From: Bacillota bacterium
GTDB taxonomy: Bacteria; Bacillota; Clostridia; Christensenellales; CAMQZB01
NCBI GenBank assembly: GCA_044426085.1
Contig: JAWXUU010000001.1
Coordinates: 15,084-79,083, forward strand
DNA length: 64,000 nt
Reading direction: 5' to 3'
Part shown: piece by piece, positions 1,239-39,916 of the stretch
Layout of the letters: each line of letters begins with the position of its first letter
How positions within the stretch are numbered: position 1 is the stretch's first letter
Position numbers and translations under genes: made by a program
Notes under the pieces: model-generated
What the model was told of the DNA's origin: nothing
Database searches by the model: none
The model's input: only the letters and a program-made list of their open reading frames with translations

Positions 1239-2252
1239 CTACAATTTTATTGCTTCTTTTATTCTACATATTTCACCTACTTCTGTTGGAATATTATACC
1301 CTATAACATTAACTTCCGTAACCAAACTTACCCCATATTCTTCATGGATTTTATCATGAAGCCATTTGACAGCAAAAAACCAATCTTGACTATTAGAATG
1401 TTCTGAGATATTACATAGAAAATTCGCATGTTTTGATGACACACAAAATTTATTACAAATCACAGCACCTTTTAAACCCATTTTTTCAATTAGTGCACCT
1501 GCTGGAACCTTAAATCCAAACTCACTATTAATAACCGCAACGCCCTTCCCCTTTAAATAATTTACACAATTATTGTCTTTCGTAAAATAAGGCAAAAATA
1601 GCGAACCAGAATTAGGATATTTAATAGGATCAGGAAATTTACGCACTCGCATATCTTTAATTTTCTTTATTGCAAGATTTAAACTAATATATTTATCATT
1701 AATGCATATCATATTATGTGTAAGTTTATTCGAACTAATAAAGGTTGCAGAAATTATTAAGTATCTATTGGCGTTTTTCATAAACACGCTTGATCTATAA
1801 CTAAATTCACAATCACTCTTGCAAAATTCTATAATTTTTTGTTGCTCACTATCCCAACAAATAACCTTATCTATAAATTGAGATATACAAAAATTAAAAG
1901 CCCCTGAATTTTGAAATATTGCACCCCCAACGGTTCCCGGTATGCCTGATAAATAAATAATTTCATAGCTATCAGTTCTTGATAATACATCTATTAATTG
2001 AGATAACAACACCCCTGCGGTAACATGCACAATTAATTTATCTTTCAAATACTCCACCTTCATATTTGCATTTGATTTAAGTAAACATAACTTATCTCCC
2101 CAAAGAACCACATTGCTTCCTTCACCTAAAACCACATAATCTTGATTCCCATTTGCCAATCTAACAATATCATCGATATCACTATACCAACTTATTAACT
2201 CAATATTTGAATCTAAAGCTATAGAAGTATAATTATAATTTTTCCAATTCAT
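1239..2252 (-). CDS. murB: UDP-N-acetylenolpyruvoylglucosamine reductase (MurB, short type II) paralog
   Basis: FAD-binding motifs GEGSNVVL and IPGTVGGAIFQNSGAFN. Substrate and catalytic motifs YPNSGSLF, VSSKHANFLCN and LVTEVNVIGY match recalled MurB consensus. The upstream gene overlaps it by 20 nt. Confidence 0.8.
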   Translation of the reverse strand: MNWKNYNYTSIALDSNIELISWYSDIDDIVRLANGNQDYVVLGEGSNVVLWGDKLCLLKSNANMKVEYLKDKLIVHVTAGVLLSQLIDVLSRTDSYEIIYLSGIPGTVGGAIFQNSGAFNFCISQFIDKVICWDSEQQKIIEFCKSDCEFSYRSSVFMKNANRYLIISATFISSNKLTHNMICINDKYISLNLAIKKIKDMRVRKFPDPIKYPNSGSLFLPYFTKDNNCVNYLKGKGVAVINSEFGFKVPAGALIEKMGLKGAVICNKFCVSSKHANFLCNISEHSNSQDWFFAVKWLHDKIHEEYGVSLVTEVNVIGYNIPTEVGEICRIKEAIKL

Positions 2253-3963
2253 TGAAATCCCCGCGCCTTTCCATAACCGCCCTACAAAACAAAGAAAGCT
2301 CGAAATTTAATACATCATCTACATTACATTTTATCACACGCCCTTCATTGCAAACCACATCTAGCTCATTCAATACCTTACAAAAAAATAAGTATACGTA
2401 TCCAGTCATACTATACGCATCTTCATTAATATAAATTTGATTCAAATATATAAGATCAAGCTCAAGTCCAATTTCCTCTAAAATTTCTCGTTTAGCTGCA
2501 CTTATTGGAGTTTCTCCCTGGAACATTGCTCCCCCCCAAAAGGATACTTTACCGCTATTCTTTATATCTTTTAAATCTCTTTGTTGCAAAATAAGCCGAT
2601 TAAGACTATCCACTAAAATTACAGCAACACTTTCATGAATATTTTGTTTTTTTTCCTTTATTACGGCACCTAGTTTTGTCAAATTAAATATAATATTTGA
2701 ATAGCCACGATGGAGTTGCTCAGCATGACATATCACGCATGAACTCTTAGTAATAGCAATGGCAATAAGTTCAGCAAATGCACACCGCAAATCAGTAGCA
2801 ACTATTTCGACCATCCCAACAGACGCAATATACTCATCGCAATATTCTACAGAATATATACCATTATTCTCAATAAAATACCATCCTAATTTCGATAATT
2901 GATTTAGATATTCAACTCTACCAATAAATTTCCTATCAATAACTGTAACTTTATTACAATACTTTGAGGCCCAAACTACCAATATAGGTTGCAAATCGGA
3001 ACTAATATTAGGATAAAACGAAGCCTCAATAGCACACTCATCCTTCCTAACAACACTACAGTTGCCATCACTTTTAATCCAAACTGCGTTTTTAAGCCAC
3101 TTGATTCTCCCATTGCTAAGTGTTTCAATAAATTGCATTGACTTAATATATGGAATATCTGCGATAATTTCGCCATTCACACCAAGCGCATCCATCAGAC
3201 ATGCATACCCCAAAACTTCATCTATATCACTAGGAATTCTATATTCAATAATAGATAAATTATCAACCTTTTTACCATCTTTAACCGTAATACTATTATC
3301 GTTAATTTTACAAATATATTTTTCTTTAATCGTATTTATAAATTCAATCAAATATTGAACTTCTGGTCTTACCGAGATATTATTAATCATTCCTATTTTA
3401 CCTTCATACATACAAAAAATACCTGCGACTGTCCCCATCGTAGTATCAAAGTCAAAACTAAATTCCTCAATAAAAGTTGTATCCGCCAAAAATGAAATTT
3501 CTATAAAATCATCTATTTTAACAGATCCCCCCATCTTTTTCCATAGTTCTACATGTTGATCAATTTGCCTATTCCCAATTTTACAACCACCCAATAAATT
3601 TGGCACCTTAACATATCCAAACCTTAATAAATGCAATGTGACGGCAAGTAATGCACTTCTACAATTCACTACAAATGGCGTACTAATCATATTTTTTTTA
3701 ATCCCTTCATTGATAGTGATCATCTTCTCCATCTTGTTATATTCAATTTTAGCCCCTGCCAAAACGGCATAATCAAGTAAAAATATCACGTCACTTATTT
3801 CTGGAACATTGTTTATTATCACCTTTTTATTTAAAAATATTGATAATAAAAACGTGTATATAAAACTGTGCTTACTCCCACTCGCACTTAAACTAACAAA
3901 TGTATTTTTCTTTAGAAAACATATTTCAATATCCTTCTTGTTTGGTGCAAATGCCATTTGCAT
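2233..3963 (-). CDS. MurA-like enolpyruvyl transferase fused to a C-terminal NUDIX hydrolase domain
   Basis: MurA-like GSKHS..., catalytic-Cys loop LLGGCKIGNRQIDQH, and C-terminal DLRCAFAELI...HRGYSNIIFNLTKLGA. The last ~134 aa carry a perfect Nudix box GAMFQGETPISAAKREILEEIGL (nt ~2464-2532). Confidence 0.8.
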   Translation of the reverse strand: MQMAFAPNKKDIEICFLKKNTFVSLSASGSKHSFIYTFLLSIFLNKKVIINNVPEISDVIFLLDYAVLAGAKIEYNKMEKMITINEGIKKNMISTPFVVNCRSALLAVTLHLLRFGYVKVPNLLGGCKIGNRQIDQHVELWKKMGGSVKIDDFIEISFLADTTFIEEFSFDFDTTMGTVAGIFCMYEGKIGMINNISVRPEVQYLIEFINTIKEKYICKINDNSITVKDGKKVDNLSIIEYRIPSDIDEVLGYACLMDALGVNGEIIADIPYIKSMQFIETLSNGRIKWLKNAVWIKSDGNCSVVRKDECAIEASFYPNISSDLQPILVVWASKYCNKVTVIDRKFIGRVEYLNQLSKLGWYFIENNGIYSVEYCDEYIASVGMVEIVATDLRCAFAELIAIAITKSSCVICHAEQLHRGYSNIIFNLTKLGAVIKEKKQNIHESVAVILVDSLNRLILQQRDLKDIKNSGKVSFWGGAMFQGETPISAAKREILEEIGLELDLIYLNQIYINEDAYSMTGYVYLFFCKVLNELDVVCNEGRVIKCNVDDVLNFELSLFCRAVMERRGDFNELEKL

Positions 3964-4040: not shown

Positions 4041-4069
4041 ATTATACCTAATACTGCACATTTTGTCAA
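4041..4069 (-). promoter_or_regulatory. Consensus sigma-A type promoter for the murA-NUDIX/murB operon
   Basis: On the minus strand: TTGACA (4069-4064), a 17-nt spacer, then TATAAT (4046-4041), about 75 nt upstream of ATG 3963. Confidence 0.6.
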
Positions 4070-4193: not shown

Positions 4194-5258
4194 CTAGACT
4201 GCGCCGCTTTTTTCGCAATCCTCTTTATAAAGCAACAATTTACCTGTATTCCAATCTACATACCCTTTTCTATACATTGTATCATATAGGCGCATAGCTC
4301 GCACTGCTCCTATTTGAAATTCTTCTGCTATGCTTGAGATACTGATGGATTGACATTCTAGTGCGTACATCAATACTTTTGCTAGCATCACATCGTCTTC
4401 TTCTGTTGTTTTTTCATTTTTAATAAATGTTTTTAGCGATTGTGCATCACTATATTTCATGCCTAGAATCATAAAAAATAAGATTTCAGCTGACCCTGCT
4501 AAGCTTTCATCAAGAACCGAACTGAAATTTATTGGAATATGCTTTGGAACTTCATCTCTTATTATATCCGCTGCTTCACTGATATCAGACAAAATACATT
4601 CATCAATGCATGTACTAAATCCAATCATGCACTTTTCTGCACAAATAAAATGATTATGCAAAATTTCATCTTTTGCAATTTTGTCTGCGGCCGCACTCAT
4701 TGAGAATTCGCCATCACAAACTTTTACTGACTTAGCAAAAACATGTTTGCCTTTAGTTATTTCAGCAATTTCTTCAAGACCAATATCGATTATTCCAATA
4801 CCTCTGCTCATTTTGTCAATGATATACATGTAGTCTACCATCATATCGAAAACAGCATTATTTCCCTGTTCTTCAGTTTTTAAATTTTCATTTCCTGCCA
4901 TCATCTCGGACACAGAAAATTTAGTGCATATTGATTCTTGCTTTTCTATAACGCTGAGCCATGCATCATTGTTTTCCAATAAATCAGCGGCTAAAATTAA
5001 AGTTTTAAACTCGGAATCCCTAGCTGATTTTTCCAGAAATTCATATACCTTTTGCGAAGCCCAATCGCCGAACTGGCAAACTATGAAATTTATATCTTCA
5101 CAATCAAAGCCTTGCAATTTTTCACAGATTGAAGCTTCCTCTTTAACATCATTGTTATCAACATGCACACAAAGTGAATTTGCAATATATTCCTTATCGC
5201 TAGATTTTATTTTTTCAAATATAGTTTTACCAATATTGCCGGTGCAAATTATATTCAT
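4194..5258 (-). CDS. FtsZ-fold protein with degenerate GTP-binding motifs fused to an FtsK-gamma-like winged helix (paralog 1)
   Basis: GIGIIDIGLEEIAEI aligns to FtsZ PGLINLDFADV. An FtsZ C-domain-like stretch runs KCMIGFSTC...LSDISEAADIIRDEV...INFSSVLDESL...ILFFMILG. The tubulin signature position reads CQFGDWAS. The C-terminal ISISSIAEEFQIGAVRAMRLYDTMYRKGYV resembles FtsK gamma. Confidence 0.6.
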   Translation of the reverse strand: MNIICTGNIGKTIFEKIKSSDKEYIANSLCVHVDNNDVKEEASICEKLQGFDCEDINFIVCQFGDWASQKVYEFLEKSARDSEFKTLILAADLLENNDAWLSVIEKQESICTKFSVSEMMAGNENLKTEEQGNNAVFDMMVDYMYIIDKMSRGIGIIDIGLEEIAEITKGKHVFAKSVKVCDGEFSMSAAADKIAKDEILHNHFICAEKCMIGFSTCIDECILSDISEAADIIRDEVPKHIPINFSSVLDESLAGSAEILFFMILGMKYSDAQSLKTFIKNEKTTEEDDVMLAKVLMYALECQSISISSIAEEFQIGAVRAMRLYDTMYRKGYVDWNTGKLLLYKEDCEKSGAV

Positions 5259-5261
5259 TTT

Positions 5262-5327
5262 TATCCCCCTTATATTTTAAATTAATCTTCGCTTTCAGTC
5301 TTGAAATACTCCATTGCTTTTACCAAA
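5262..5327. repeat. About 65-bp copy of the 3' end, stop and RBS region of gene 7801-8412 (second copy at 7779-7846)
   Basis: Both copies read ...gtaaaagcaatggagtatttcaagactgaaagcgaagattaatttaaaatata.gggg.ataaaaat on the minus strand. The copy at 5262-5327 has no ORF attached. Confidence 0.8.
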
Positions 5328-5382
5328 TTCCTTCCGACCTTTATATTTCTTCTTCTATTTTAAAACATGATCTATATACTTT

Positions 5383-6144
5383 CTAACTTTCATCATCCAT
5401 AATATCCCAAAAAGAACCTATTGGAACGCTTTCTAGCTGTTCGTAGCGTTCTGCAGCGGCTTTACTTCCTTGCTTTGCAGCCATAGCAAAGTAAAGCTTT
5501 GCTTTTTCAATATCCTTTTCCTCACTGTATTCACTGCTATAGTGCAAGCCTAGAAAAAATTGAGCTCGTTCATCTCCATTGTCAGCTGCACGCGTATACC
5601 AATATATTGATTTAGCCACGTCTTTTTCCGTAATCGTACCAAATCTATAGATGCTTCCAAGCCTACTTTGCGATCTTGTATCATTAAGCTCGGCTCCTTT
5701 CTTATAATGCTCTATCGCCTTTTCATTGTTGATATCACGTCCATATCCAGATATATATGCCAAACCTAGCAATCTATAAGCGATCGGAAAATTTTGACTA
5801 GCCAATTCTTCCAACAACTTTATTTGTTTTTCATGATTTACTTCTGTGCCAATGCCTTCTCCGTAACAATGCGCCAACAAACATTTTCCTTCTTGACTGC
5901 CTTGGTCTGCACATATTTGAGCAAAATGAAATGCTAACTTATTGTTACGATTACTATCCCCCACATTCCTATATAAAAAACATAGTGCAAGACCATAACA
6001 CCCTCTCAAATCACCAAGCCGCCAAACGCGAGAATATAGTTTCAATGCAAAATCAATCTCCGAGTTTTTGTATCGAAACTCCGCCTCCTGAAATATTTCT
6101 TCCACATCAGCTATTTTTAAAATATATTGATTTAACTCTTTCAA
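5383..6144 (-). CDS. Sel1-like (SLR/TPR-type) repeat protein, no signal peptide
   Basis: Repeated units such as AQFFLGLHYSSEY..DIEKAKLYFAMAAKQG, AYRLLGLAYISGYG..NNEKAIEHYKKGAELN and SQSRLGSIYRFG. TTG start with AAGGAG RBS, overlapping the upstream stop by 4 nt. Confidence 0.7.
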   Translation of the reverse strand: MKELNQYILKIADVEEIFQEAEFRYKNSEIDFALKLYSRVWRLGDLRGCYGLALCFLYRNVGDSNRNNKLAFHFAQICADQGSQEGKCLLAHCYGEGIGTEVNHEKQIKLLEELASQNFPIAYRLLGLAYISGYGRDINNEKAIEHYKKGAELNDTRSQSRLGSIYRFGTITEKDVAKSIYWYTRAADNGDERAQFFLGLHYSSEYSEEKDIEKAKLYFAMAAKQGSKAAAERYEQLESVPIGSFWDIMDDES

Positions 6145-7751
6145 TGTTTATCTCCTTGTAAATACAGGTCTTCGCCGAATTCTTTCTCGAACTGAGCTAT
6201 ATCAATATATATTTCACGATGACCATTTACAACTTCAGATGCAACATACCCTTTTTCTATCATAGTATCAAGAAGTTTTCTAGCCCTGTAAATTGAAAGA
6301 TTCCAATCACGGATTAAAATACCATGATTAATAGATTTTCTTATAATTGCATACCTGATAGCATCTTTCAATCTAGGGTCATCACCCACAAACGATTCAT
6401 CACTTTCATTTCTGAGTTCACCACATTTACGAACATTTTCGAATGTACTATTTCTCTTTAGTACATCTTGCATGACTTTTTCAATCTCTTCTTGGGTAAC
6501 TTTGCAACCTTGCGCTCTCTCGTAATCATCCGCATCTAGTTGATATATCAACATATCACCATCACCCAATAAATTTTCGCCACCATATACACCAAATGCT
6601 ATCTTTGATTCTTCCTTAGAATTCTGCTTGAATGTTATGCGCGATCCATAGAGTGTTTTAATCGTTCCAGTGAAAATATCTCTAGTGGATTTTGATGATC
6701 CAATAACCACATGTATACCAATAGTTCTAACTTTTTGAGCAATCATAACCAAGTGTTTTTCGAAACTCCTCTTTTCTTGCTCAATAAATGGAGCTATTTC
6801 AGGAATAACGACAACTATTCTTTGCATTATCATGCAATTTTCAGCCTTAGCATAAGCATTATATTGTTCAATATTTCTGCTTCTAGCGATACTAAACAAC
6901 GCATACCTATCTTCCATTTCTTGCACTAACCACAACAATATCTTTTCAGCTTCTTCGATATCTGTACAAACACCATTACCACAAAGATGTGGAATACCTT
7001 CAAACTTTGAAAGATTATTATCATCCAAATCTATCAATATAATTTTCACATGGTTTGGATCTGAACTAAACATCAAGCTCATCATCATCGAATTTATAAA
7101 ATTGTCTTTATCTTGTCTGTTTCCAGATATCAAAAGATTTGGATCATTTTTAAGATTTAAAACAAGATTTTCGCCCTCAACAGTTTTACCAATTGCCAAT
7201 GAGCAGTTACTTTCTGTTAGTTCATGATTGTTTTTAATCTTCTGAAATTTCTCATCCAGCAACACTTCTAGTAGGCACACTTCTTTGTTTTTCGTGTTTG
7301 GCAATTCAATTACAATGCTCCTGTCACTATATTCACCTGCATCGATCATGACTTTATTTACACCTAGCCCTAATGCTATGGCAATTTTATTTTTGTGTTC
7401 TTGCAATATTTTTACAAATTCCAATTGCTTTCTTTTTTGTTCAAATTCAGAAATTAGTTTCACTTGTGCATTATCGCCAATGCCTGATTCTTCTTCAAGT
7501 AGTGAAATTTCAAATCTAACAACTGCATTACCACACACAATGTTAGAAACATACATTGGTATATCCAAATCTTGCAGCCAAGCATTGATTTTTTTCTTAT
7601 TAGTTGCATTAACTGATTTATCAACAAGATTTTTATCACGAACTTTGCGCAATAGCTTATCCCATTTTGGCGGCACATATGTCACAGCTTGTCCAGATAA
7701 ATTTGTTTTTTGATCTTCGCTTTTGCTATAAAGTTCCATTGTTTTATTCAT
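6141..7751 (-). CDS. FtsK/SpoIIIE-family protein with degenerate Walker A/B and an intact gamma domain
   Basis: The P-loop position reads LLISGNRQDKDNFINSMMMSL (nt 7101-7124) where the family has GxxGSGKS. The Walker B position reads IVVVIPEIA (DE to PE). IGIHVVIGSSKST replaces ATQRPS. GENLLGDGDMLIY is conserved. The C-terminal IRDWNLSIYRARKLLDTMIEKGYVASEVVNGHREI resembles FtsK gamma. Confidence 0.7.
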   Translation of the reverse strand: MNKTMELYSKSEDQKTNLSGQAVTYVPPKWDKLLRKVRDKNLVDKSVNATNKKKINAWLQDLDIPMYVSNIVCGNAVVRFEISLLEEESGIGDNAQVKLISEFEQKRKQLEFVKILQEHKNKIAIALGLGVNKVMIDAGEYSDRSIVIELPNTKNKEVCLLEVLLDEKFQKIKNNHELTESNCSLAIGKTVEGENLVLNLKNDPNLLISGNRQDKDNFINSMMMSLMFSSDPNHVKIILIDLDDNNLSKFEGIPHLCGNGVCTDIEEAEKILLWLVQEMEDRYALFSIARSRNIEQYNAYAKAENCMIMQRIVVVIPEIAPFIEQEKRSFEKHLVMIAQKVRTIGIHVVIGSSKSTRDIFTGTIKTLYGSRITFKQNSKEESKIAFGVYGGENLLGDGDMLIYQLDADDYERAQGCKVTQEEIEKVMQDVLKRNSTFENVRKCGELRNESDESFVGDDPRLKDAIRYAIIRKSINHGILIRDWNLSIYRARKLLDTMIEKGYVASEVVNGHREIYIDIAQFEKEFGEDLYLQGDKH

Positions 7752-7800
7752 TTTTTACTTACCCCTTTACTTGTAATTTTTATTCCCCATATATTTTAAA

Positions 7801-8412
7801 TTAATCTTCGCTTTCAGTTTTGAAATACTCCATTGCTTTCACCAAAAGCTCTGTCGATTTTTGCATATCTTCATGTGCGCAAATAAGTTTATCCATTTCT
7901 GCTGCATCATATATTTTATATGGTTTATCACTGTTTTCAACTGTAACAGGACAAATAAATCTGTCCTTTATTTGCGATTCTGCAGTGAAATCGGTTGTGC
8001 TTGCCTCCATATTTATAAAATCTTCAAGACTAAAATCTAGTCTTTTTTCAAAATCCGATTCTTTATAAATTTTAATAAAACTTATAATACCTTTTACCAT
8101 TAAGCTGAAATCTACTTCATTTTCAGCTTGAAAACAGTTTATAAATGCTTCAGGAATGATAAAAAATCTATTTTTCATTGCCACTTTACCAAAGCTGACA
8201 ACATCGTATCCGTCGTTTGAAAATGCTGTAGTAAATTTTGCTTTTTCACTATCAGTCATTGCGTTTCTTATCACAAGTTTAGGCAATTTTGCACCATCTT
8301 TGCCTTTTTCTATCATCAAGCACCATTCCATGTCGCCACTTACAGCAAGATTTCTTGGCATGACAGCTTTTCCTTTTTTAGGATATATTACATACGTTCC
8401 ACAATAAAACAT
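7801..8412 (-). CDS. Hypothetical protein (203 aa)
   Basis: ORF with a GGAGGA RBS, co-directional in the array. No recognisable motifs. Confidence 0.6.
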   Translation of the reverse strand: MFYCGTYVIYPKKGKAVMPRNLAVSGDMEWCLMIEKGKDGAKLPKLVIRNAMTDSEKAKFTTAFSNDGYDVVSFGKVAMKNRFFIIPEAFINCFQAENEVDFSLMVKGIISFIKIYKESDFEKRLDFSLEDFINMEASTTDFTAESQIKDRFICPVTVENSDKPYKIYDAAEMDKLICAHEDMQKSTELLVKAMEYFKTESED

Positions 8413-8472
8413 GATTTTTCCTCCAATGTTTATATATTATTTAATATTGACATTTTTTATCGTGTATCATCA

Positions 8473-9183
8473 TTATATCATAACAATATCATGATACAAA
8501 ATCGATTTTCTGTGATTAATTTGTGCATCAGCGTGGTAGTGACCACACCACCAGTGAGTATACTCCACGTTTTCTTCAAACATATTAAGCCTTATATTCG
8601 TTTCCATCGCATTCCTATGCGCACCCACGACTGTGCCAAACTTTGTGCTACGTTCGTCCACTGTGTGGGTTATTATGTAGTCAACCTTGAAGTCGTGCAA
8701 TGCAAGATTTTTATATGCCTCATCATATTCTGCTTGAATTGGAGTTTCTTGTTTCCACCAACTTTTGCCTTCCGTGCGCCACTCTTTATCCGTGCTTTCT
8801 GCACCACCGAAAGTGAATATCTTTTTACCATATATTTCAAAAATTTGCCCACGCATAAGATGGATAATGCTGTCAGAAATTTTATGTGCATTACCACAAT
8901 TCCACTGCTCGATTGGATATTTATTCAACATATCAAAGTTCTCATGATTACCATCCACAAAAAGTGTTGTGAATGGCAGGTTATTATAAAGTTTTTTCAT
9001 CTTTGCAAGTTCATGCTCGCTCCAAACAATGCCGCAATCGCCAGCTATTATAACAAAATCATCTTTTGTGAGTTCTAGCCCTTTACGCTGCCCAAACGCC
9101 CGCATTTTCATGAAATCATTCGTTCCATGCGTGTCTCCAGTCACAAAAATCCTGCCTTGTTGTTCTGTTTTTATATTATTCAT
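8473..9183 (-). CDS. Calcineurin-like metallophosphoesterase
   Basis: Motifs GDTHG, IIAGDCG, VDGNHENF and ITHT. The ATG at 9183 is preferred over the track GTG at 9192 because AAGGTAG lies 8 nt upstream. Confidence 0.75.
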   Translation of the reverse strand: MNNIKTEQQGRIFVTGDTHGTNDFMKMRAFGQRKGLELTKDDFVIIAGDCGIVWSEHELAKMKKLYNNLPFTTLFVDGNHENFDMLNKYPIEQWNCGNAHKISDSIIHLMRGQIFEIYGKKIFTFGGAESTDKEWRTEGKSWWKQETPIQAEYDEAYKNLALHDFKVDYIITHTVDERSTKFGTVVGAHRNAMETNIRLNMFEENVEYTHWWCGHYHADAQINHRKSILYHDIVMI

Positions 9184-9273
9184 ACTAATCACTACCTTAT
9201 ACGTTACTCCTCGTCAAACAAAATTTTGTGAGCTTCCAACTCTTTCACGGACATGGATTCAAGTTCTTCAAAG

Positions 9274-10332
9274 CTATGACCTGGATTTGAATCGTCCTGT
9301 TTTTTCATCTATGTACCCCATTTCTATCATCTTATCTAGTAGCCTGCCCGCCCTTGGGAAGCCCAATGAGAATTTTCTTTGAAGCATAGTTATAGTCAAT
9401 TTATCGCAAGTTTTTGCATACTCCACTGCTGCTTCAAAAAATTCATCTAGTTCGTGAATTTCTGGTATACCTGAAATCTCCACTTTTTTTGCTTGAATTT
9501 CTGTATGTCCAAATTCTTTTTCACCTAACCCCAAAATGATTGAAACAGTTATTCCACTAGCATATGTATCACAGCAAACTGTTCCAAACATTATATTTGA
9601 GTCTGAATGTACTTCATTTCGTATTACATCTGCGACATTTGAAATCTCGCTTATATTTATATCATGATAGCTTGAACAAACAAGTATCACAGCACTCATA
9701 CAACTTGAAATATTGTTTGCGATACATGGCTTTTTGATTGCTTCTAGTGTAGCGCTTGCAGCTTTATTATCTCCATCAACGCACGAGCCACTTGCCACCA
9801 ATGTATAGCGATTTCCCATTGTCATAATATCAATGTCTGCATAATCAAGGTTGATTATGCCAGGATTATTCGTTGCGCTTTCTATCGCACAAATATAATC
9901 AATAACCATATCATAAATATCTGTGATAGCTTCTTTATCTTCAGTTATTTCATGACTTTCTGTCAGCAACATTTTTGCCGAAAATACCACAGCCTCCGCT
10001 TGATATGGCAATTTCTCCTTTTTTTCAATATTATTATCAACCCATGGTTCAATCACAAGAACCTTATTTTGCATATTTGTACCAACACCAAATTCCCCTA
10101 TTGTATCGTGAACCACAACGCTTGTTTCGCTGCTGTATTCGCAAATTGTATAGATTATGTCGCCACCCTTAATGAAGGATTCAATGCAACCTATATCACC
10201 TTTTTCTTCGATAAAAAGACAATCTTCTTCCGATATTGTTTCTAGTTTTTCGTATTTTATAGCTTTTTCAATAGCTGCTTTGCCAGCATAACCTACGCCA
10301 ATTATTTTAATGTTTATATTTAAATTTTCCAT
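9274..10332 (-). CDS. FtsZ-fold protein with degenerate GTP-binding motifs fused to an FtsK-gamma-like winged helix (paralog 2)
   Basis: IKIIGVGYAGKAAIEKAI vs FtsZ IKVIGVGGGGNNAVNRMI. PGIINLDYADIDIM vs PGLINLDFADVKTIM. C-domain LVASGSC..DNKAASATLEAIKKPC...AVILVCSSYHDINISEISNVADVIRNEV.SDSNIMFGTV...ITVSIILGLG. The tubulin signature position reads CEYSSETS. The C-terminal LTITMLQRKFSLGFPRAGRLLDKMIEMGYI resembles FtsK gamma. Confidence 0.7.
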   Translation of the reverse strand: MENLNINIKIIGVGYAGKAAIEKAIKYEKLETISEEDCLFIEEKGDIGCIESFIKGGDIIYTICEYSSETSVVVHDTIGEFGVGTNMQNKVLVIEPWVDNNIEKKEKLPYQAEAVVFSAKMLLTESHEITEDKEAITDIYDMVIDYICAIESATNNPGIINLDYADIDIMTMGNRYTLVASGSCVDGDNKAASATLEAIKKPCIANNISSCMSAVILVCSSYHDINISEISNVADVIRNEVHSDSNIMFGTVCCDTYASGITVSIILGLGEKEFGHTEIQAKKVEISGIPEIHELDEFFEAAVEYAKTCDKLTITMLQRKFSLGFPRAGRLLDKMIEMGYIDEKTGRFKSRS

Positions 10333-10353
10333 AATATTCCCCTTATACCTATT

Positions 10354-11460
10354 TTATTGTGTTTTTAGTTCCAACTTGTTGCAATTATAAAATGCATCTC
10401 TAGCAATATTCTCAATACCACCACTCATTTTCACTTCTTGTAAATTACCACATCTAGCAAATGCTTGTTTTTGAATTTCAATTACTGAGCTAGGTGTATT
10501 CACCGATTTAATATAGCTGTTATTCATAAATGCTGAATTTGAAATGATTTTAACACTATCTGGGATATCAAAATGTTCATCACTTTTCCCGCATGGATAT
10601 ATGAGCAACGTTTTGCCATCAGCGGAAAACAACACACCATCTACGCTTTTATATAATGAACTGCCGTTTTCGATGGTTACCCCTTTTAGTTCATGACAAG
10701 CGTGAAAAGCATGATTACCAAACTCTCCAAGTTGCGTGAATATTACATCTTTGTTTAGATATACTCTCTCTAGATACTTACACCCCGAGAATGCACCAGC
10801 TCCGATTGTCAAAAGTTTTGAGCAATCGATATTTTTAATTCTTGCACAACCTCTAAATGCATAAAGGTCAACATGCAGAACATTTTTCATATCTACACTT
10901 TCAAGACCAGTGCAGCCATCGAACATTGCGCATGGAATTCTATCGATTTTGTTATTAAATTCGAAGTGTTGCAAAGTGATGCACATCTCAAATGCTGTCT
11001 GGTCAACTGATGCAATGCTGTCTGGCATAATAAATTCTTCTATACTGCTGTTGGAAAAAGCAAAACTGCCAATGCTTTTCGCGCCCAACATCACTTTGTC
11101 TATATCACAATACGGGTTGTTTGGATAGAAAATAAGTTTGTCCGTTCCTTTTTCAAAAACAGCACCATCTCTATCATAAAAATATTCGTTATCCTTATCC
11201 ACCGTTATTCTTTCTAGGTTTGCAAAATACATAAAGCTACGCGCTTCCATATATTGAATTTTTGAATGCAAAACTATTTCAGATATCATACCTGGATATT
11301 TGCCCATATATCGAAATGAACTGCTAACTCCACAAACAGTTTCGCCGTCATACTCAAGCGGAACAGCTATAGTGCGCGACTCACCCTCATATGAACAAAG
11401 CATAGTCAAACCGTATTCTTTTACAAACTCAAATTCCTCTTTTTGTTTATCATCACACAT
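10354..11460 (-). CDS. BspA-type leucine-rich repeat (LRR_5-like) protein, no signal peptide
   Basis: Repeated units such as IGSFAFSNSSIEEFIMPDSIASVDQTAFEMCITLQHFEF, IPCAMFDGCTGLESVDM and ISNSAFMNNSYIKSVNTPSSVIEIQKQAFARCGNLQEVKM. ATG 11460 is preferred, with GGGGGA 8 nt upstream. Confidence 0.7.
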   Translation of the reverse strand: MCDDKQKEEFEFVKEYGLTMLCSYEGESRTIAVPLEYDGETVCGVSSSFRYMGKYPGMISEIVLHSKIQYMEARSFMYFANLERITVDKDNEYFYDRDGAVFEKGTDKLIFYPNNPYCDIDKVMLGAKSIGSFAFSNSSIEEFIMPDSIASVDQTAFEMCITLQHFEFNNKIDRIPCAMFDGCTGLESVDMKNVLHVDLYAFRGCARIKNIDCSKLLTIGAGAFSGCKYLERVYLNKDVIFTQLGEFGNHAFHACHELKGVTIENGSSLYKSVDGVLFSADGKTLLIYPCGKSDEHFDIPDSVKIISNSAFMNNSYIKSVNTPSSVIEIQKQAFARCGNLQEVKMSGGIENIARDAFYNCNKLELKTQ

Positions 11461-11497
11461 AATATATTCCCCCACTTATTTTTTCGAAAGTTGTTCC

Positions 11498-11526
11498 ATT
11501 GTATCACTTTTATAACAAAATTTCAA
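11498..11526 (-). promoter_or_regulatory. Candidate internal sigma-A promoter upstream of the LRR gene
   Basis: On the minus strand: TTGAAA (11526-11521), a 17-nt spacer, then TACAAT (11503-11498), inside the 164-nt gap after the VirD4-like gene. Confidence 0.4.
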
Positions 11527-11624: not shown

Positions 11625-13337
11625 CTATCCAAACAAATCAAATGGGTCGGCGCTTTTTTTGGCTGCAGTTTTTATATATTGGTATGTATATTTTTTATCG
11701 TGAATATTCACTGTTGATTTATAATCTTCAATATCCGCTTCATCACAAATATATTCAGGACAGTTATAATATCTTTCCAAATAAGTTTTTAAAACATATT
11801 TTAAAGCAGATGATTTGATATAAATTTCGCCCTCTTCGAGTCCCGAAAGTTGACTTACTGGCACAACGGGCATCTCAAGAAAATTACATCTTTCAATATT
11901 TTCACCACTACACCCAAACACATCAATAGGTGACAAAACTTGTCTTGTCCCACACATTCTTGAAAATTTTTGTTGCGTTTCATAGTTATTTGAAGACAAA
12001 AAATATGTTGTTGCAATGTTATCCAATATAGTTCCATATTCACTAGGATATTTTTTCTCTAGTTGGCAATAACTTTGCAATACTAGTGTCATATAAATCC
12101 CTCGCCCAGCCGAAACACTCATTTGCGTATCAAAATCTTCTATGACAGGCATATTACCAAATTCATCCAAAATGAAATGCACATCTCTTGTGGGCACTTT
12201 AGCTTGACCTTTTAGTCTTACTAGCTTTGAGTAGAAATCAGCGATAAATAAAGATATCGCTTCATATCCTGATTTCTTTTCATCTGGAAAAATTATATAA
12301 AGAATTGCAGGTTTTTCTTGAGAAATAAAGTCTTCAGCACTGAACGTGCTAGTCAATGATATATTCTTTTCCACAACGTTACCAAAGTGTGATATATGTG
12401 AGGAAAGCACTGATTCAATGCTATTTCTAGTCTGATCGGGAGCATTAAGATATCCGCCAGCCCTGCGCTTTGCTATGCTGTCATCAGGGCGTTCTCGCAA
12501 AAATTCACTTCCATGTCTTTTTCCTAACCCATCTTCAAACAACATTTTCACAGTTGCCATATTGAAGTTATCCCTTGTGACTTTTCCTTTAGGATTTTTG
12601 CCGTCTACATCTTCAAGTAAGCCTATAATATATCCTTCTATCTCATCTCGTGAAGCGCTATCCCAAAATGGGTCTTTTTGATTCATGCTCTTTATTGATT
12701 GCACAACAAAATCATGTATTAATTCGAATGCCAAATGCCTATGAAAATATTCTTCATCAGCTATAAATTTACGACATTCCGTTATCGATTCAAAGATTTT
12801 TCCATCATATAGCAAACATCTTCTGCCATCTTTTGTCGTAACAAAGTTTGTTTCTTTTAATTCCGCACCTTTATTCACATATAAGTCAAACGCACTTTGC
12901 AATATATTGTAAGAATCACTATACCTATAATCCCTAAAGTTTAGCAAGCGTACATCATAGCCTAAATTTCGCATCATTACTGCAGTCTTAGCATACAGCT
13001 CGCCTTTAGGATCTGTTTCTATTATCGATGGTTTTTCAGCCGATTGCGCAAGGTTGAGCGTTTGTGGAATAATTAAACCTGTGGTTTTTCCACTTCTCGT
13101 GCTTCCAACTATACATTGATGACCTGGGTGCTTAGTATAAACTTGGTATAATTTGCCATTAACTCGCCTATTAGACAACAATGAGCCTAGTTGCTTTTGC
13201 TTATTCAAATCTTCATATTTGACCATATTTTGATCCCATAATCCGAATAAATCTGTTTTTAAATCACCTGTGGAGCATATCCTATCATGCTCTTGCACTA
13301 CATCATCCTTTATTTTTGATATTTTTAGCATACTCAC
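11625..13337 (-). CDS. VirD4/TraG-family coupling-protein-like ATPase lacking N-terminal transmembrane segments
   Basis: Walker A GSTRSGKTTGLIIP, DPKGELY, Walker B HFILDEFGNMP, and GRGIYMTLVLQSYCQLEKKY. No hydrophobic N-terminus. Start is ambiguous (GTG 13337 or ATG 13331). Confidence 0.75.
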   Translation of the reverse strand: MSMLKISKIKDDVVQEHDRICSTGDLKTDLFGLWDQNMVKYEDLNKQKQLGSLLSNRRVNGKLYQVYTKHPGHQCIVGSTRSGKTTGLIIPQTLNLAQSAEKPSIIETDPKGELYAKTAVMMRNLGYDVRLLNFRDYRYSDSYNILQSAFDLYVNKGAELKETNFVTTKDGRRCLLYDGKIFESITECRKFIADEEYFHRHLAFELIHDFVVQSIKSMNQKDPFWDSASRDEIEGYIIGLLEDVDGKNPKGKVTRDNFNMATVKMLFEDGLGKRHGSEFLRERPDDSIAKRRAGGYLNAPDQTRNSIESVLSSHISHFGNVVEKNISLTSTFSAEDFISQEKPAILYIIFPDEKKSGYEAISLFIADFYSKLVRLKGQAKVPTRDVHFILDEFGNMPVIEDFDTQMSVSAGRGIYMTLVLQSYCQLEKKYPSEYGTILDNIATTYFLSSNNYETQQKFSRMCGTRQVLSPIDVFGCSGENIERCNFLEMPVVPVSQLSGLEEGEIYIKSSALKYVLKTYLERYYNCPEYICDEADIEDYKSTVNIHDKKYTYQYIKTAAKKSADPFDLFG

Positions 13338-13338
13338 C

Positions 13339-13905
13339 TCAATAGCCTATCTTCGTTCCACTTTTAGCTTTACGCCGTGATATTTCCTTACTTTTATCTA
13401 CTATATAGCTTGCAGAATACATATCAAAAACATGTTTGTCCATATGTTTATAAACAATCCTCGTTAGTTCCTCAAAAAGTTTATCTATTGCAAAATCATC
13501 TTTACAAATACACTGTGCTTTATTGAATTCTGAAATAAAGCTTTCCATTTTTCCACTCAAACTTTCAAGCGACATTTCCATATCAGAAGCACTAGTTAAT
13601 TCTTCAACTATATATACCGCTGTTTTTTTAGCGATAAACACAAGCCCTTCTTCATCGCTCATGACTTTATCGAGTGCTTTGTTCTTATAATCTAAATATC
13701 GTAAATACATTCTGAAATCATTTGGCTTGTCTAGTTCTATCATTCCTTCACTGTTAATAACTTCCCAAAATTCATCAGCATTTTTCATTTCACAATATTC
13801 TGATATTTCATTATAAAATAACTGTTTATTGATAACCTCATACCCCTTCATAATATCCAAAAGAAAGTATATTATCATAAACCTACCAATACATACATCT
13901 TTCAT
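13339..13905 (-). CDS. Hypothetical protein (188 aa from preferred start)
   Basis: ATG 13905 is preceded by GAAGGTGGG. The track start at 13965 would overlap the upstream stop. No recognisable motifs. Confidence 0.55.
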   Translation of the reverse strand: MKDVCIGRFMIIYFLLDIMKGYEVINKQLFYNEISEYCEMKNADEFWEVINSEGMIELDKPNDFRMYLRYLDYKNKALDKVMSDEEGLVFIAKKTAVYIVEELTSASDMEMSLESLSGKMESFISEFNKAQCICKDDFAIDKLFEELTRIVYKHMDKHVFDMYSASYIVDKSKEISRRKAKSGTKIGY

Positions 13906-13961
13906 TTTACCCACCTTCACTTTGTTATAACCATTAATCATACACACATATTTTATATGTA

Positions 13962-15353
13962 TCAATTATGTTTATTTTTATATTGTTCAGAACGCTTCTC
14001 ATTCTGTTCCTTGCTAGTGAATACCATTTTTTCTAGTGTTCCACCAAGAATATATTTCTTATCGCATTGCAAATCTTTTACAATGTTTTTTCCAATCAAC
14101 CTGCCTATATCACTTATAAGCGCCCTCACCCCAAAAGCTGTTGCGCCATATTTTTTAACAACATCTTTACGTATTGAGCTTTTAATATTAGCTATTTCAA
14201 TCCCGTATTCTTTGGCACTGTTTTTTATTGCGATATTCATGATTTCATGCATATCTTCTTTTGACAGCTGCCTATACTCAACAAAATATCCGATACGGCT
14301 GGCAATCTCTGGCTTAAATCCGTTATCTACCATTGTTTGGCGACATTCATCACTTCTGCTTTGTTGGGTTTTTAAAACTTCCGTAGATTCAACGTTGATG
14401 CCACAGGCAAATCCTACGTTAGATTTCTTATCAGTTTTGATATTGGAAGTAAGCATGATTATACATCTTGAACAATCATATTCAGAGACACCGTTCTCAT
14501 CTGCTCTTGCTAGCGTTATGACTCCGTTATCAAATATACTCATCAATGCGACGTGAATGTTTGAATGTGCTTTTTCATATTCGTCAAGTAAGATTATAAG
14601 TGAATTCGTTTTACGTATTGGTTCAAGCACCGTCTTATCATCATACCCAGCATATCCCGCCGGAGAGCCGAAAAGCTGTGAAATACGATATTCTTCCGTA
14701 TATTCATTGCAGTTTATCGTGATTACTTTGTTATCAAATCCACAATCTGCTTTAGCTAATTCCTCTGCAAGATATTTTGCTGTCGCTGTCTTTCCAACTC
14801 CAGTTGGACCTGACAACATAATGGATACTGGCTTTTTTGGATTAGGCTTCTTAAGATGATTGGAAACGCACTCAACAACCTGCTCAAGTTGATTGTCTTG
14901 TCCCACAATTTTTGATTTGAGATTTCTTGTTATATTATCGCTATCAATATAGCATGCACCGTATTTTTTTTGTGTGTTCTTACGTTTATCATTTTCATCA
15001 TCATATTCATAATCATCGTCTTCAAAACCATACCGCATACAATATTTTGCATAGTTATAATTGAATTTTATTTCATCAAACAATTCGACTATATCATATT
15101 CTGAACCGCAAAAGATTTTGCCATATGTAGAAAGAATAAGAATGCTTCGACACTTGCCAAAGTAACACATATCATAATGACTTTTTTGTGCTAGATAAAC
15201 GCATATTCCATTATTTCCTGATGTTTCAAATACCAATTCCGTTTCCTCATCCAAAAAATTAACGCTGTATTTAATTCGCCTAGGATTCCCCGCTGTAAGT
15301 TTTCTCCAAATATCTTGATCGACGATATTCTTTTTAATAAAGAATTTTTCCAT
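13962..15353 (-). CDS. AAA+ ATPase of the Clp/Hsp100 D2 type with an unknown N-terminal domain
   Basis: IVGQDNQLEQV...KPVSIMLSGPTGVGKTATAKYLAEELA; ITINCNEYTEEYRISQLFGSPAGYAGYDD; Walker B LIILLDEYEKAHSNIHVALMSIFDNGVIT; IIMLTSN. ATG 15353 is preferred (AAAGGAGGA 7 nt upstream). The track start at 15443 lies inside a hairpin. Confidence 0.8.
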   Translation of the reverse strand: MEKFFIKKNIVDQDIWRKLTAGNPRRIKYSVNFLDEETELVFETSGNNGICVYLAQKSHYDMCYFGKCRSILILSTYGKIFCGSEYDIVELFDEIKFNYNYAKYCMRYGFEDDDYEYDDENDKRKNTQKKYGACYIDSDNITRNLKSKIVGQDNQLEQVVECVSNHLKKPNPKKPVSIMLSGPTGVGKTATAKYLAEELAKADCGFDNKVITINCNEYTEEYRISQLFGSPAGYAGYDDKTVLEPIRKTNSLIILLDEYEKAHSNIHVALMSIFDNGVITLARADENGVSEYDCSRCIIMLTSNIKTDKKSNVGFACGINVESTEVLKTQQSRSDECRQTMVDNGFKPEIASRIGYFVEYRQLSKEDMHEIMNIAIKNSAKEYGIEIANIKSSIRKDVVKKYGATAFGVRALISDIGRLIGKNIVKDLQCDKKYILGGTLEKMVFTSKEQNEKRSEQYKNKHN

Positions 15354-15416
15354 GTAATCCTCCTTTGAATACACACTTATTCTTATAACGCAATATTTTT
15401 TGCCGTTGGTTGAGTA

Positions 15417-15449
15417 AGCTAGGTGCACATTTTTCATGTGCACCTAGCT
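15417..15449. other. Strong 14-bp-stem intercistronic hairpin between the Hsp70-like and AAA+ genes
   Basis: agctaggtgcacat-ttttc-atgtgcacctagct, 8 nt after the Hsp70-like stop. No U-tract follows on the transcribed strand. Confidence 0.7.
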
Positions 15450-15456
15450 GTTTCAA

Positions 15457-17010
15457 TTACATCGCATGTGTTTGCGATTCTTCTCTGTGTGGTATTCTGT
15501 TGCCTTTTTTATCATGAAGAGTTATATCGATGGTAGAGTTATGCATTTTTAGAGTTATGTCAAACGCAAACTTATGCGATTTTTCTCCGAACCATGCTTT
15601 ATAATATTTCTTTGGCACATCGATAGTGCATTTTGAACCATGCATTTTTGCATATTCGACAGGAACAACCTGCTTGGTTGAATCGTTTTCAAAAACTTCG
15701 ATTGTGACCACTTCTTGTTTTTTCTCGTATGGAATAAATTTTCCATCACTTTTGACTTCAACCCCACCACAGAGATTATCAATAGGTGAACCTTTGATGA
15801 TGATATTGCTTATATATGGGCCCTCATCACTTCTGCAAAGCACGCCATATGAATGTTGAATCACATCGCTGATTTTTGATGATACATAGTTTGTTTTGAA
15901 ATATGAATAGTATGCATTCCCAAGAGCGATTGCCTCGCTTGGCTTAAATGCAACTATATTTGATTCGCTAACTCTGCTTTTGAATTTGCGAATCATCATA
16001 TTTCTCACCATTGGCATTGCAGATGCACCGCCGACAAGCACAATTTTATCTATTCTTCCAGAATATTCTTTCATGCAGCTATCAACCACAGCTTCGATTT
16101 TCTTTAGTTCTGCACTGCTTTCACTTTCAAATTGAGTTCGTGAAATTGTCAAGAAGTCGTCGTCGCCTTTTGGAATGGTTGCAAACTGCTCGTTTGAAAG
16201 AATGTGTTTTGCTCTGTGAATATCATCTTCAAACCTAGAAATCTCCTCAAGAGTTGCATTTTTGCTAATACCGCCCTTGCTCTTTGCCATATTTTGCAAT
16301 ATTGTATCGAAATTTCTTCCACCAATTGCAATGTCGCCATAGCATTTTATTACATTTATTCTATCACCCGACCTTTCAACGATTGCAACGTCTGTTGTGC
16401 CCGCACCTACGTCTAGCACCAACACTATTTGATTTCCCATAACTAGCGAATCTTTCACGTATGCAAATGCGGCTGCTTTTGGCTCTTCGATAATATGAAT
16501 TCTTTCCATTGCAATTCCAGTGGCTTCACTTATACCTTTCAAAATATATTTATTATATTCCGAAGCGGAGTTGCGACTGTTTTCACTGCCAAGACCAGCA
16601 GGCGTTGAAATAGTCAGTTCAATATCAGAATACCCTGTCGCCTCATCAACAAAGTGCATCTCTTTCATTTTCTTGATTGCTATATCAAGAGCGTACTTTG
16701 CAAACCCAATAACAACTTCATTTATCGAAAAAGTTTTGCCATTTGAATTGAAAACTTCCTTGTTGTTTAGTTCAAGATTTGAGATTTTACGTATGTCACT
16801 CTTGAAATACTTAATCACCGATTTTTGATTCCTTTCTGCATTTGCTATTTCTAAGGATTCATTGCCAAAAATAAGCGTTCCTTTATTATGAGAATAGTAG
16901 GCAACACTCTTATCTTCTGCGACTATTCTCGCATGCTCGCCAACTGTGATTGCTACACTTGAATTTTCATTCCCTAGGTCTATGCCTACGTTATAAGTTT
17001 TGTTATTCAT
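15457..17010 (-). CDS. Hsp70/DnaK-family ATPase with a beta-sandwich-like C-terminus and no helical lid
   Basis: VGIDLGNENSSVA (phosphate-1, TT to NE), IIEEPKAAAFAY, VLDVGAGTTDVAIV and IVLVGGASAMPMV. The C-terminal 130 aa resemble SBD-beta. The protein ends at 517 aa. Confidence 0.8.
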   Translation of the reverse strand: MNNKTYNVGIDLGNENSSVAITVGEHARIVAEDKSVAYYSHNKGTLIFGNESLEIANAERNQKSVIKYFKSDIRKISNLELNNKEVFNSNGKTFSINEVVIGFAKYALDIAIKKMKEMHFVDEATGYSDIELTISTPAGLGSENSRNSASEYNKYILKGISEATGIAMERIHIIEEPKAAAFAYVKDSLVMGNQIVLVLDVGAGTTDVAIVERSGDRINVIKCYGDIAIGGRNFDTILQNMAKSKGGISKNATLEEISRFEDDIHRAKHILSNEQFATIPKGDDDFLTISRTQFESESSAELKKIEAVVDSCMKEYSGRIDKIVLVGGASAMPMVRNMMIRKFKSRVSESNIVAFKPSEAIALGNAYYSYFKTNYVSSKISDVIQHSYGVLCRSDEGPYISNIIIKGSPIDNLCGGVEVKSDGKFIPYEKKQEVVTIEVFENDSTKQVVPVEYAKMHGSKCTIDVPKKYYKAWFGEKSHKFAFDITLKMHNSTIDITLHDKKGNRIPHREESQTHAM

Positions 17011-17070
17011 TTTTTATCCTCCATGTTTTTATAAAACGCTTTTCTTAGCGTATGGTTACTTGATTGAATA

Positions 17071-26978: not shown

Positions 26979-26995
26979 TTTAAAGGAGAGAATAT

Positions 26996-33818: not shown

Positions 33819-33819
33819 T

Positions 33820-34365: not shown

Positions 34366-34375
34366 AATCTAACTC

Positions 34376-36289: not shown

Positions 36290-36302
36290 TTTTCTCTCCT
36301 TA

Positions 36303-39434: not shown

Positions 39435-39916
39435 TATTTCTCCCCTTTCCATTATTTTATAATCCGTTAAATTATATCACAAAATGTGAAATTGTGCAAG
39501 GCTCTTGTGTTTTTATTTTAGCCAACTACGTTGGGATTCATAAGGTGTTTTCATCTTCAATTTTAGATTTGTCATTTTTTATAGCCATTCCGCCTCCAAG
39601 CCACTTAAAATATAACCAAATTTCTCAAATTCTAAAGAACCATAAAAAATTTTATTTCCGTTTTACTTCAATAAATTTTTTTATTATCGTTTGTGCGATT
39701 TCTTGATAATTCAATAAATTCAGTTCTATTAGTGGCATAAGGCGACGGAACGGCTCGAAAAAAGCGATAAATTTATTTCTAAAATTGAATATTTCAACTA
39801 AGTCAATATTTAAAATTCAAGGCTTCAGGAACTCTCTAAAAAAGCAATTTTGAGTTTTGAGAATAAAAGAACTGCAAGGTGGTGCATAGGAACTACCGAG
39901 CGGAAAGGAGGAACAC

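Follow-up and report, generated by a model that had tools for sequence, protein, structure and literature searches.

A soluble FtsK paralogue with a degenerate nucleotide site, encoded beside two FtsZ-like-gamma proteins on a conjugative element of Clostridia

FtsK has been studied almost only as a motor. Among the Bacillota, SftA of Bacillus subtilis is a membrane-free protein of the FtsK family with motor and gamma domains; it is encoded on the chromosome, its Walker motifs are intact and it is an active ATPase and translocase. FtsK-family proteins are also encoded by conjugative plasmids, as is the case for TraB of Streptomyces. Both soluble FtsK paralogues and degenerate FtsK-type domains, the latter inside EccC/EssC, are already known. 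Here we describe a gene, referred to as pseudo-FtsK, whose product shares with SftA the membrane-free combination of motor and gamma domains, and differs from it in the loss of the Walker motifs and in being carried by a conjugative element. The gene is located at positions 6141-7751 of a stretch of 64,000 nucleotides from a Bacillota bacterium (Clostridia; Christensenellales; CAMQZB01), corresponding to positions 15,084 to 79,083 of contig JAWXUU010000001.1 of assembly GCA_044426085.1. This whole stretch is called the window, and all positions given are positions within it.

The open reading frame (ORF) at 6141-7751 codes for a protein of 536 amino acids. Translation from a further in-frame ATG, at 7739, would yield the 532-residue form recorded by public gene callers, and a candidate ribosome-binding site (RBS), AAAGGGG, is located at 7762-7768. 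A preliminary description, made from the sequence alone, had proposed that the product is an FtsK/SpoIIIE homologue, and by homology, at levels far exceeding chance, it can be assigned to this family: the match to Pfam FtsK_SpoIIIE (PF01580) had an E value of 2.8e-29 and 102.6 bits, for a curated cut-off of 24; the NCBIfam FtsK profile gave E 6.8e-43; and the motor structures of E. coli and P. aeruginosa FtsK were matched with E values from 1e-41 (E. coli FtsK 2ius, phmmer) to 3e-35. Every peptide block quoted in that description was found in the ORF. The AlphaFold2 model of the protein (predicted local distance difference test, pLDDT, 73.7; predicted template-modelling score, pTM, 0.69) was superposed by Foldseek on FtsK motor chains with E values of ~1e-26 and template-modelling (TM) scores of 0.69-0.80.

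The protein begins ~25 residues ahead of the alpha domain, at a conserved Y-x-P-P...LL motif, and neither a four-transmembrane (4TM) domain nor a linker is present (no PF13491 match in Pfam). The product is therefore a soluble FtsK paralogue composed of alpha, beta and gamma domains. Since both alpha and gamma domains are present, the nearest relative is chromosomal FtsK. The alpha domain scored 20.6 bits with its Pfam profile, PF17854, just under the cut-off of 22.9, and contains a helical insertion of ~22 residues at about residues 95-116. The features of the gene are the following:

6141..7751, minus strand: coding sequence of the soluble FtsK paralogue with a predicted dead nucleotide site, 536 aa
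7296..7658, minus strand: FtsK alpha domain, residues 32-152 (Pfam, alignment and model)
7101..7124, minus strand: degenerate Walker A, G210-N-R-Q-D-K215-D-N217 (alignment and model)
6789..6815, minus strand: Walker B region, V313-VVIPEIAP321 (alignment)
6726..6728, minus strand: arginine finger R342, aligned to R620 of P. aeruginosa FtsK (PaFtsK)
6687..6701, minus strand: G351-S-S-K-S355, replacing A-T-Q-R-P (alignment)
6204..6383, minus strand: FtsK-gamma winged helix, residues 457-516 (Pfam, comparison with PDB structures and model)

The nucleotide site was analyzed by aligning the protein with solved FtsK structures, with 8 canonical FtsKs and with 38 canonical FtsKs. Residue roles were taken from a study of PaFtsK, which covers E596, D599, T630/Q631, R632, K657, H675, F695, R548/N549 and R620 (bioRxiv 10.1101/2022.01.03.474797). 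The sensor-1 Gln and an upstream arginine finger are hallmarks of the HerA/FtsK clade (PMC10853773).

The Walker A motif, G[AT]TGSGKS in canonical proteins, was found as GNRQDKDN: one residue is deleted, the glycines after the first are gone and the Ser/Thr is replaced by Asp. The preliminary description had reported a destroyed P-loop, which is correct for the glycine scaffold and the Ser/Thr but not for the Walker A lysine, retained as K215. In the model, the strand stops at residue 210 and a helix begins at 212, so that there is no phosphate-binding loop. The alignment was also inspected for a shifted but intact P-loop, and this possibility was ruled out: the sole other G-K-[ST] of the protein, IGKT at 187-190, corresponds to a strand, LGKD, that occurs throughout the family and precedes the P-loop. 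The Walker B motif, hhhDE, aligned to VVIP317E318. Its loss had been reported as well and applies to the Asp (PaFtsK D595), replaced by P317, but not to the catalytic Glu (PaFtsK E596), which is retained as E318. PaFtsK D599 is replaced by P321.

The segment ATQRPS aligned to G351-SSKST356. The replacement of ATQRP by GSSKS is real, but it had been taken for a loss of the arginine finger, while ATQRP is the sensor-1 and pore-loop motif; the canonical trans-acting arginine finger, PaFtsK R620, is retained as R342, in a column that is invariant in the alignment. The sensor residues T630 and Q631 (sensor-1) are replaced by S352 and S353, and the adenine-stacking residues H675 and F695 by D397 and K417, respectively. 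Both DNA-gripping loops have a basic residue: R632 of pore loop II is replaced by K354, and K657 of pore loop I corresponds to K379. The predicted trans-acting pair R548/N549 is retained as R292/N293.

As judged from these alignments, the cis nucleotide pocket is dismantled at each of the positions examined (P-loop, Walker-B Asp, sensor-1 Gln and the two adenine stackers), while the residues that would be inserted into the site of a neighbouring subunit (R342 and R292/N293) are kept. Compared with a functional translocase, four features are missing: Walker A, the Walker-B Asp, the sensor-1 Gln and the membrane anchor. The protein is thus predicted to be incapable of canonical ATP binding or hydrolysis, and the proposal of a pseudo-translocase without canonical ATP use is supported by the alignment of catalytic residues to FtsK.

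The gamma domain had been described as well preserved, which was not confirmed. Its score with PF09397 was 22.3 bits, under the cut-off of 30.6, and the isolated domain matched gamma chains of the PDB with E values of 0.18-0.36 only. The modelled C-terminal 60 residues were superposed on the gamma structures 2j5p, 2ve8 and 2ve9 with TM scores of 0.75-0.86 and root-mean-square deviations of 1.6-2.1 A. The domain is recognisable, and its conservation is no better than that of the motor. In FtsK, gamma residue R1289 forms a salt bridge with E184 of XerD (PMC5052618), and residues N1296, R1300 and E1303 (E. coli numbering) read the FtsK-orienting polar sequences (KOPS) (PMC2533119). In the sequence alignment R1289 is retained as R481; among the KOPS readers R1300 and E1303 are conservatively replaced by K492 and D495, and the replacement of N1296 by Y488 is non-conservative.

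No close relative of pseudo-FtsK was found. A word-index search returned its own cluster only, followed by canonical FtsKs at ~32% identity, and phmmer, run exhaustively against 1.84 billion representatives, yielded 21,284 matches, none with more than ~36% identity. Scans of genome, metagenome and viral contigs revealed no orthologue, just two canonical Clostridia FtsKs at 30-32%. The tblastn search against plasmids gave 579 records with FtsK homologues, the best-ranked being 27-29% identical, and megablast of 25 kb against phages and plasmids gave no match. An assembly or sequencing artefact is ruled out, since the protein sequence was identical in assemblies from six sequencing runs and the DNA of the five contigs compared (up to 17.7 kb) was 100% identical to the window.

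Walker A is kept in all 38 canonical FtsKs aligned and in nearly all of the 269 homologues retrieved, which identifies the degeneracy as specific to pseudo-FtsK; Walker B and TQRP are also kept in nearly all of the homologues retrieved. Motif loss is not unique within the FtsK family, as two database proteins with altered motifs demonstrate. P0153 has GGTASDTR at Walker A and ATQWPS, and P0121 is a membrane-free tandem alpha-beta...gamma double motor with TSKP in place of TQRP and with Walker A and B intact. Both are only 28-32% identical to pseudo-FtsK and differ from it in architecture, being tandem motors. Soluble FtsKs of degenerate or rearranged type may form a group that has received too little description.

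The ORF of pseudo-FtsK has remained open over 536 codons (1.6 kb) in DNA of 33% GC, although the protein is ~70% diverged from any FtsK, and 51 alignment columns are invariant with canonical FtsKs, including the structural motifs TGTIK and GxGDM. Together with the confident fold model and with the RBS and start codon of the next gene, embedded in the 3' end of the ORF (see below), these observations suggest that the gene is under selection. It is kept as an intact gene and is apparently expressed.

Pseudo-FtsK is located in a run of seven genes of the same strand, 4194-11475, which is a probable operon. A promoter-like site, TTGAAA-17-TGnTACAAT, was found by consensus scan on the minus strand at 11498-11526, ahead of the first gene, and the scan revealed no minus-strand terminator-like sites within the run nor down to position 3500. 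In addition to pseudo-FtsK, the run comprises the following features:

10354..11475, minus strand: BspA-type leucine-rich repeat (LRR) protein, first gene of the putative operon
9274..10332, minus strand: FtsZ-like-gamma 1, 352 aa
8473..9192, minus strand: calcineurin-like phosphoesterase (Metallophos)
7801..8412, minus strand: 203-aa orphan ORF, directly upstream of pseudo-FtsK, with its 3' end within the 71-nt repeat
5383..6144, minus strand: Sel1-repeat protein, 253 aa
4194..5258, minus strand: FtsZ-like-gamma 2, 354 aa
7776..7846, no strand assigned: 71-nt direct repeat, copy 1, covering the 3' end of the 203-aa ORF, the intergenic region and the RBS
5257..5327, no strand assigned: 71-nt direct repeat, copy 2, directly upstream of the ATG of FtsZ-like-gamma 2, in the RBS region of that gene

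The TTG start codon of the Sel1 gene (6142-6144) overlaps the TGA stop codon of pseudo-FtsK (6141-6143), and an AAGGAG sequence is located 7 nt upstream of this start, inside the last codons of pseudo-FtsK. This arrangement indicates that the two genes are translationally coupled, and the predicted coupling suggests a physical partnership of their products. The pair is exactly bracketed by the two copies of the 71-nt repeat, which are 94% identical, suggesting that pseudo-FtsK and the Sel1 gene were inserted or duplicated as a unit by recombination. The 203-aa ORF was an orphan in the homologue search, and no related modules were reached through it.

Directly downstream of the operon, on the minus strand, are genes for a fusion of MurA (EPSP_synthase fold) with a NUDIX domain (2233-3963) and for a MurB homologue (1239-2252). 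A perfect consensus promoter-like site was found at 4041-4069, ahead of both genes (consensus scan), and a gene for a PheRS-alpha-like fragment follows murB beyond the start of the window. Cell-wall precursor genes are unusual cargo for a conjugative element.

The two FtsZ-like proteins of the operon are 24% identical to each other (E 6e-24), and each has a C-terminal FtsK-gamma domain, with Pfam scores of 48.2 bits for FtsZ-like-gamma 1 and 31.4 bits for FtsZ-like-gamma 2. FtsZ-like-gamma 1 matched FtsZ_C in Pfam with E 2.9e-11 and solved FtsZ structures with E ~2e-11, and its model covers the whole FtsZ fold (Foldseek E ~1e-18). When compared with 5.8 billion protein clusters, it returned nothing beyond itself and canonical FtsZs at ~26% identity. 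Neither protein has the tubulin signature GGGTGTG or the T2/T3 segment, so their GTP sites are predicted to be dead. The T7 loop is retained in FtsZ-like-gamma 1 (NLDYAD) and its motif is lost in FtsZ-like-gamma 2, which also has E at the position equivalent to R1289.

Within ~6 kb, three proteins are thus encoded that derive from divisome NTPases, have lost the nucleotide site and carry a winged helix of the same type at the C terminus. The presence of the FtsZ-gamma fusions beside pseudo-FtsK suggests a coherent module and not an isolated oddity. Nor does the degeneracy reflect a general decay of the neighbourhood, which is ruled out by the intact nucleotide motifs of the nearby type IV coupling protein (T4CP)-like, ClpB-like AAA and Hsp70-like proteins. 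A TubZ-like (type III) plasmid partition role for the module was also considered, and lacks support: both FtsZ-like proteins have lost the GTP-site motifs, and no iteron arrays were found in the window.

The window codes for a MobL relaxase, a VirD4-type T4CP adjoining the relaxase, a VirB4-like ATPase, ArdC, Bro-N, a type III-like restriction-modification system and an SNF2 helicase, and among T4CPs the nearest are those of the 'CD1115 family', from plasmids of Firmicutes. The relaxase, T4CP, VirB4-like and ArdC genes identify the window, by gene content, as part of a conjugative element of a low-GC bacterium, probably one of the Bacillota. An attempt to extend the replicon by means of the ArdC-like gene yielded no matching record. 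A role of pseudo-FtsK as coupling protein of the type IV secretion system is ruled out: that place is taken by the VirD4-type T4CP next to the relaxase, and pseudo-FtsK has alpha and gamma domains.

The other genes of the window lie almost wholly on the minus strand. Upstream of the operon, a run at 11625-17919 (minus strand) codes for two orphans, of 282 and 208 aa, an Hsp70/actin-like protein, a ClpB-like AAA ATPase and a VirD4-like T4CP paralogue that is soluble, without transmembrane segments; the AAA and Hsp70-like proteins gave PADLOC matches to the candidate defence families PDC-M37B/DolB and PDC-M61B. It is followed at 18030-24182 (minus strand) by an island of higher GC content (~40%, for 33-36% elsewhere in the window), coding for a GLUG-motif protein of 1042 aa, an M6 peptidase resembling immune inhibitor A and a thiol-activated cytolysin-domain protein (E 1.7e-17). 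At 25860-28462, among the few plus-strand units, an HTH_3 protein is followed by an HD_4 + TGS protein, which has a RelA/SpoT-like hydrolase architecture with no synthetase domain detected.

A defence and anti-defence block occupies 29840-39452 (minus strand) and includes a type III-like restriction helicase that has an endonuclease domain at its C terminus, the Bro-N protein, an N6/N4 DNA methylase and the SNF2-family helicase; the ArdC-like antirestriction protein is encoded at 62577-63965. A Gp49-like gene (HigB-type toxin family) at 41847-42212 is bracketed by a perfect 26-nt direct repeat (41728-41753 and 42521-42546). An internal repeat with a period of ~1185 nt was found at 54583-56072, with segments of 232 nt and 60 nt that are 71-77% identical. 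It is located inside an ORF of 1905 aa (52662-58379), which would fit a repetitive surface protein belonging to the transfer apparatus.

The explanation that we favour, although only tentatively, is that pseudo-FtsK is a non-catalytic scaffold or ring subunit derived from FtsK which acts, together with the pseudo-FtsZ-gamma proteins, on the late-division and chromosome-resolution machinery of the host. On its own the protein would not pump DNA. Most likely it would form a non-catalytic ring, or enter one as a subunit, still packing on FtsK-type neighbours and still touching DNA. These neighbours may be copies of itself, with the acidic residues D214/D216 possibly substituting for the phosphate that the arginine finger of the next subunit would otherwise contact, or, less certainly, the motor of host FtsK. 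The ring would display the gamma domains and the co-translated Sel1-repeat adaptor, and would work jointly with the two FtsZ-gamma proteins of the operon whose GTP sites appear dead. The module would then be cargo of the conjugative element, either coupling the DNA of the element to FtsK, XerD and the Z-ring or modulating them; resolution of element multimers, segregation or a delayed closure of the septum are examples of the outcome.

A related formulation, which we consider doubtful, places more weight on the operon as a whole: its products, one pseudo-FtsK and two pseudo-FtsZ proteins, each with a gamma domain, could be nucleotide-blind mimics of the divisome assembled on DNA and binding the host Z-ring, FtsK or XerD with no enzymatic activity of their own, as a septum-tethering or 'nucleoid-occlusion-like' device. 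This would be a type of conjugative-element cargo not described before. Such a device might hold the septum open over the DNA of the element or recruit Xer resolution to it. Pseudo-FtsK would be its nucleotide-independent locked ring, in which D214/D216 of the degenerate P-loop take the place of the phosphate and pair with the arginine finger of the neighbour.

Several observations weigh against the explanation that we favour. Identity to any FtsK is only 27-36%, which makes the compatibility of the interfaces, and thus co-assembly with host FtsK, doubtful. FtsK hexamers with two inactive subunits translocate at full speed (PMC2868570), so simple poisoning would be inefficient. The window contains no dif-like site when searched with a Bacillota-type dif consensus allowing <=3 mismatches, its scanned ORFs include no tyrosine recombinase, and iteron-like, centromere-like or tandem arrays were not found in it. 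The pore-loop segment 356-390 has low confidence in the model, one of the three KOPS-reading residues is altered non-conservatively (N1296 to Y488), and the retention of K215, E318 and R342 could be due to structural inertia. Finally, no orthologues were found from which purifying selection could be measured, as the ratio of non-synonymous to synonymous substitution rates (dN/dS).

The preliminary description had suggested that the protein is retained for contact with a DNA motif or XerD, or as a poisoning or regulatory subunit of host FtsK hexamers. Either role would fit the retention of the trans residues along with the loss of the cis ones, the kept R481 and the two gamma-bearing pseudo-FtsZ genes alongside; the change of N1296 to Y488, the lack of a dif-like site or recombinase in the window and the ~30% identity to any FtsK count against both. 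The variant in which host FtsK is the partner can be taken further. Pseudo-FtsK might be a dominant-negative or regulatory subunit of host FtsK hexamers, offering its finger to one neighbour and a dead site to the other, and thereby weakening translocation or roadblock removal and delaying chromosome clearance and division during transfer or establishment of the element. The retention of the trans-acting R342 and R292/N293 along with the loss of the cis site is what such a subunit would require, mixed hexamers with inactive subunits do lose roadblock displacement (PMC2868570), and a protein without a membrane anchor would need another protein in order to reach the septum. We nevertheless regard this as rather unlikely, given an identity to any FtsK of only ~30%, the normal speed of hexamers with two dead subunits in the same study, and the diverse host FtsKs that a conjugative element would encounter. 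If instead the gamma domain alone matters, the dead alpha-beta body would serve to oligomerise or position it, and the element would encode its own Xer activation factor, by which host XerD is activated at a site of the element without septal FtsK, as XafT does for TLC-phi. The XerD salt-bridge residue is conserved as R481, isolated gamma suffices for XerD activation (PMC3130261), and mobile elements that encode an XerD activator of their own are known (PMC6744903). This explanation is unlikely, since the scans of the 64-kb window revealed neither a dif-like site nor a recombinase gene, three different gamma-bearing proteins are not evidently needed, and FtsZ-like-gamma 2 has E in place of R1289.

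Other explanations do not involve the division machinery. The gene could be the decaying relic of a captured FtsK motor fragment that has lost its function and is drifting: it is an orphan without orthologues, several catalytic positions were lost together and the neighbouring genes are orphans too. However, a 1.6-kb ORF has stayed open in AT-rich DNA in spite of ~70% divergence, the 51 invariant columns include TGTIK and GxGDM, the model has a confident FtsK fold, and the 3' end of the gene holds the strong RBS and the start of the gene downstream, all of which render a relic improbable. Slightly less probable still is a defence or counter-defence part of the 'HerA/FtsK capture' type, with the FtsK-like body localising an effector, such as the neighbouring metallophosphoesterase, to invading or transferring DNA. 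PADLOC matched pseudo-FtsK to SspH and mad8, defence systems have acquired HerA/FtsK domains bearing FtsK alpha from cellular FtsK (PMC10853773), and the neighbouring AAA and Hsp70-like genes match candidate defence families; yet the SspH and mad8 matches are confined to the generic ATPase core of FtsK, partner genes of the Ssp or Mad systems are absent, and the described capture systems use active ATPases with restriction-type nucleases, none of which is found in the operon. An active ATPase with a non-canonical nucleotide site, to which the retention of K215, E318 and R342 could point, is scarcely credible: the loop is one residue short and without its glycines, its Lys stands between two Asp residues, Pro has taken the place of the Walker-B Asp and Ser that of the sensor Gln, both adenine stackers are lost and the model has no P-loop.

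Pseudo-FtsK can be compared with several described systems. In type VII secretion, EccC/EssC have FtsK/SpoIIIE domains (DUF, D2 and D3) with degenerate nucleotide sites and scaffold or regulatory roles (PMC11154593). These domains are structural matches to the pseudo-FtsK model, with E values of 1e-4 to 1e-10, but they are arranged in tandem within a membrane-bound ATPase for protein secretion that has neither alpha nor gamma domain, and are far less similar to pseudo-FtsK in sequence than FtsK proper. XafT (DUF3653) of the satellite phage TLC-phi replaces FtsK-gamma in XerD activation and has no sequence homology to FtsK (PMC6744903); it is proteobacterial, whereas pseudo-FtsK carries gamma itself, on a dead motor. 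TcpA of pCW3, an FtsK-family protein of a conjugative plasmid, is also a structural match to pseudo-FtsK (E ~1e-14). TcpA and TraB are active, membrane-associated DNA-transfer ATPases, unlike pseudo-FtsK, which by the presence of the alpha domain is closer to chromosomal FtsK than to TcpA.

In the literature searched we found neither a free-standing dead FtsK carried by a conjugative element nor fusions of FtsZ with gamma. All proteins of the module are orphans of one lineage, which limits generality. If the module acts on the host, it would represent a new route by which a conjugative element disturbs, or piggy-backs on, chromosome dimer resolution and septation.

The closest of the described systems is the C-terminal motor of FtsK itself (2ius, 2iut and 6t8b/g/o; gamma in 2j5p and 2ve9), which has the same order of alpha, beta and gamma and the same fold (Foldseek TM 0.78), and shares with pseudo-FtsK the arginine finger, the catalytic Glu, TGxIK, GxGDM and the XerD-contact Arg. 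Unlike this motor, pseudo-FtsK is without the 4TM domain and linker, Walker A, the Walker-B Asp, the sensor-1 Gln and the adenine stackers; it has the 22-residue insertion in alpha and a Tyr at N1296, and its gene belongs to a conjugative element. It would be a natural separation-of-function variant of FtsK, useful for the study of the roles of the ring and of gamma without translocation.

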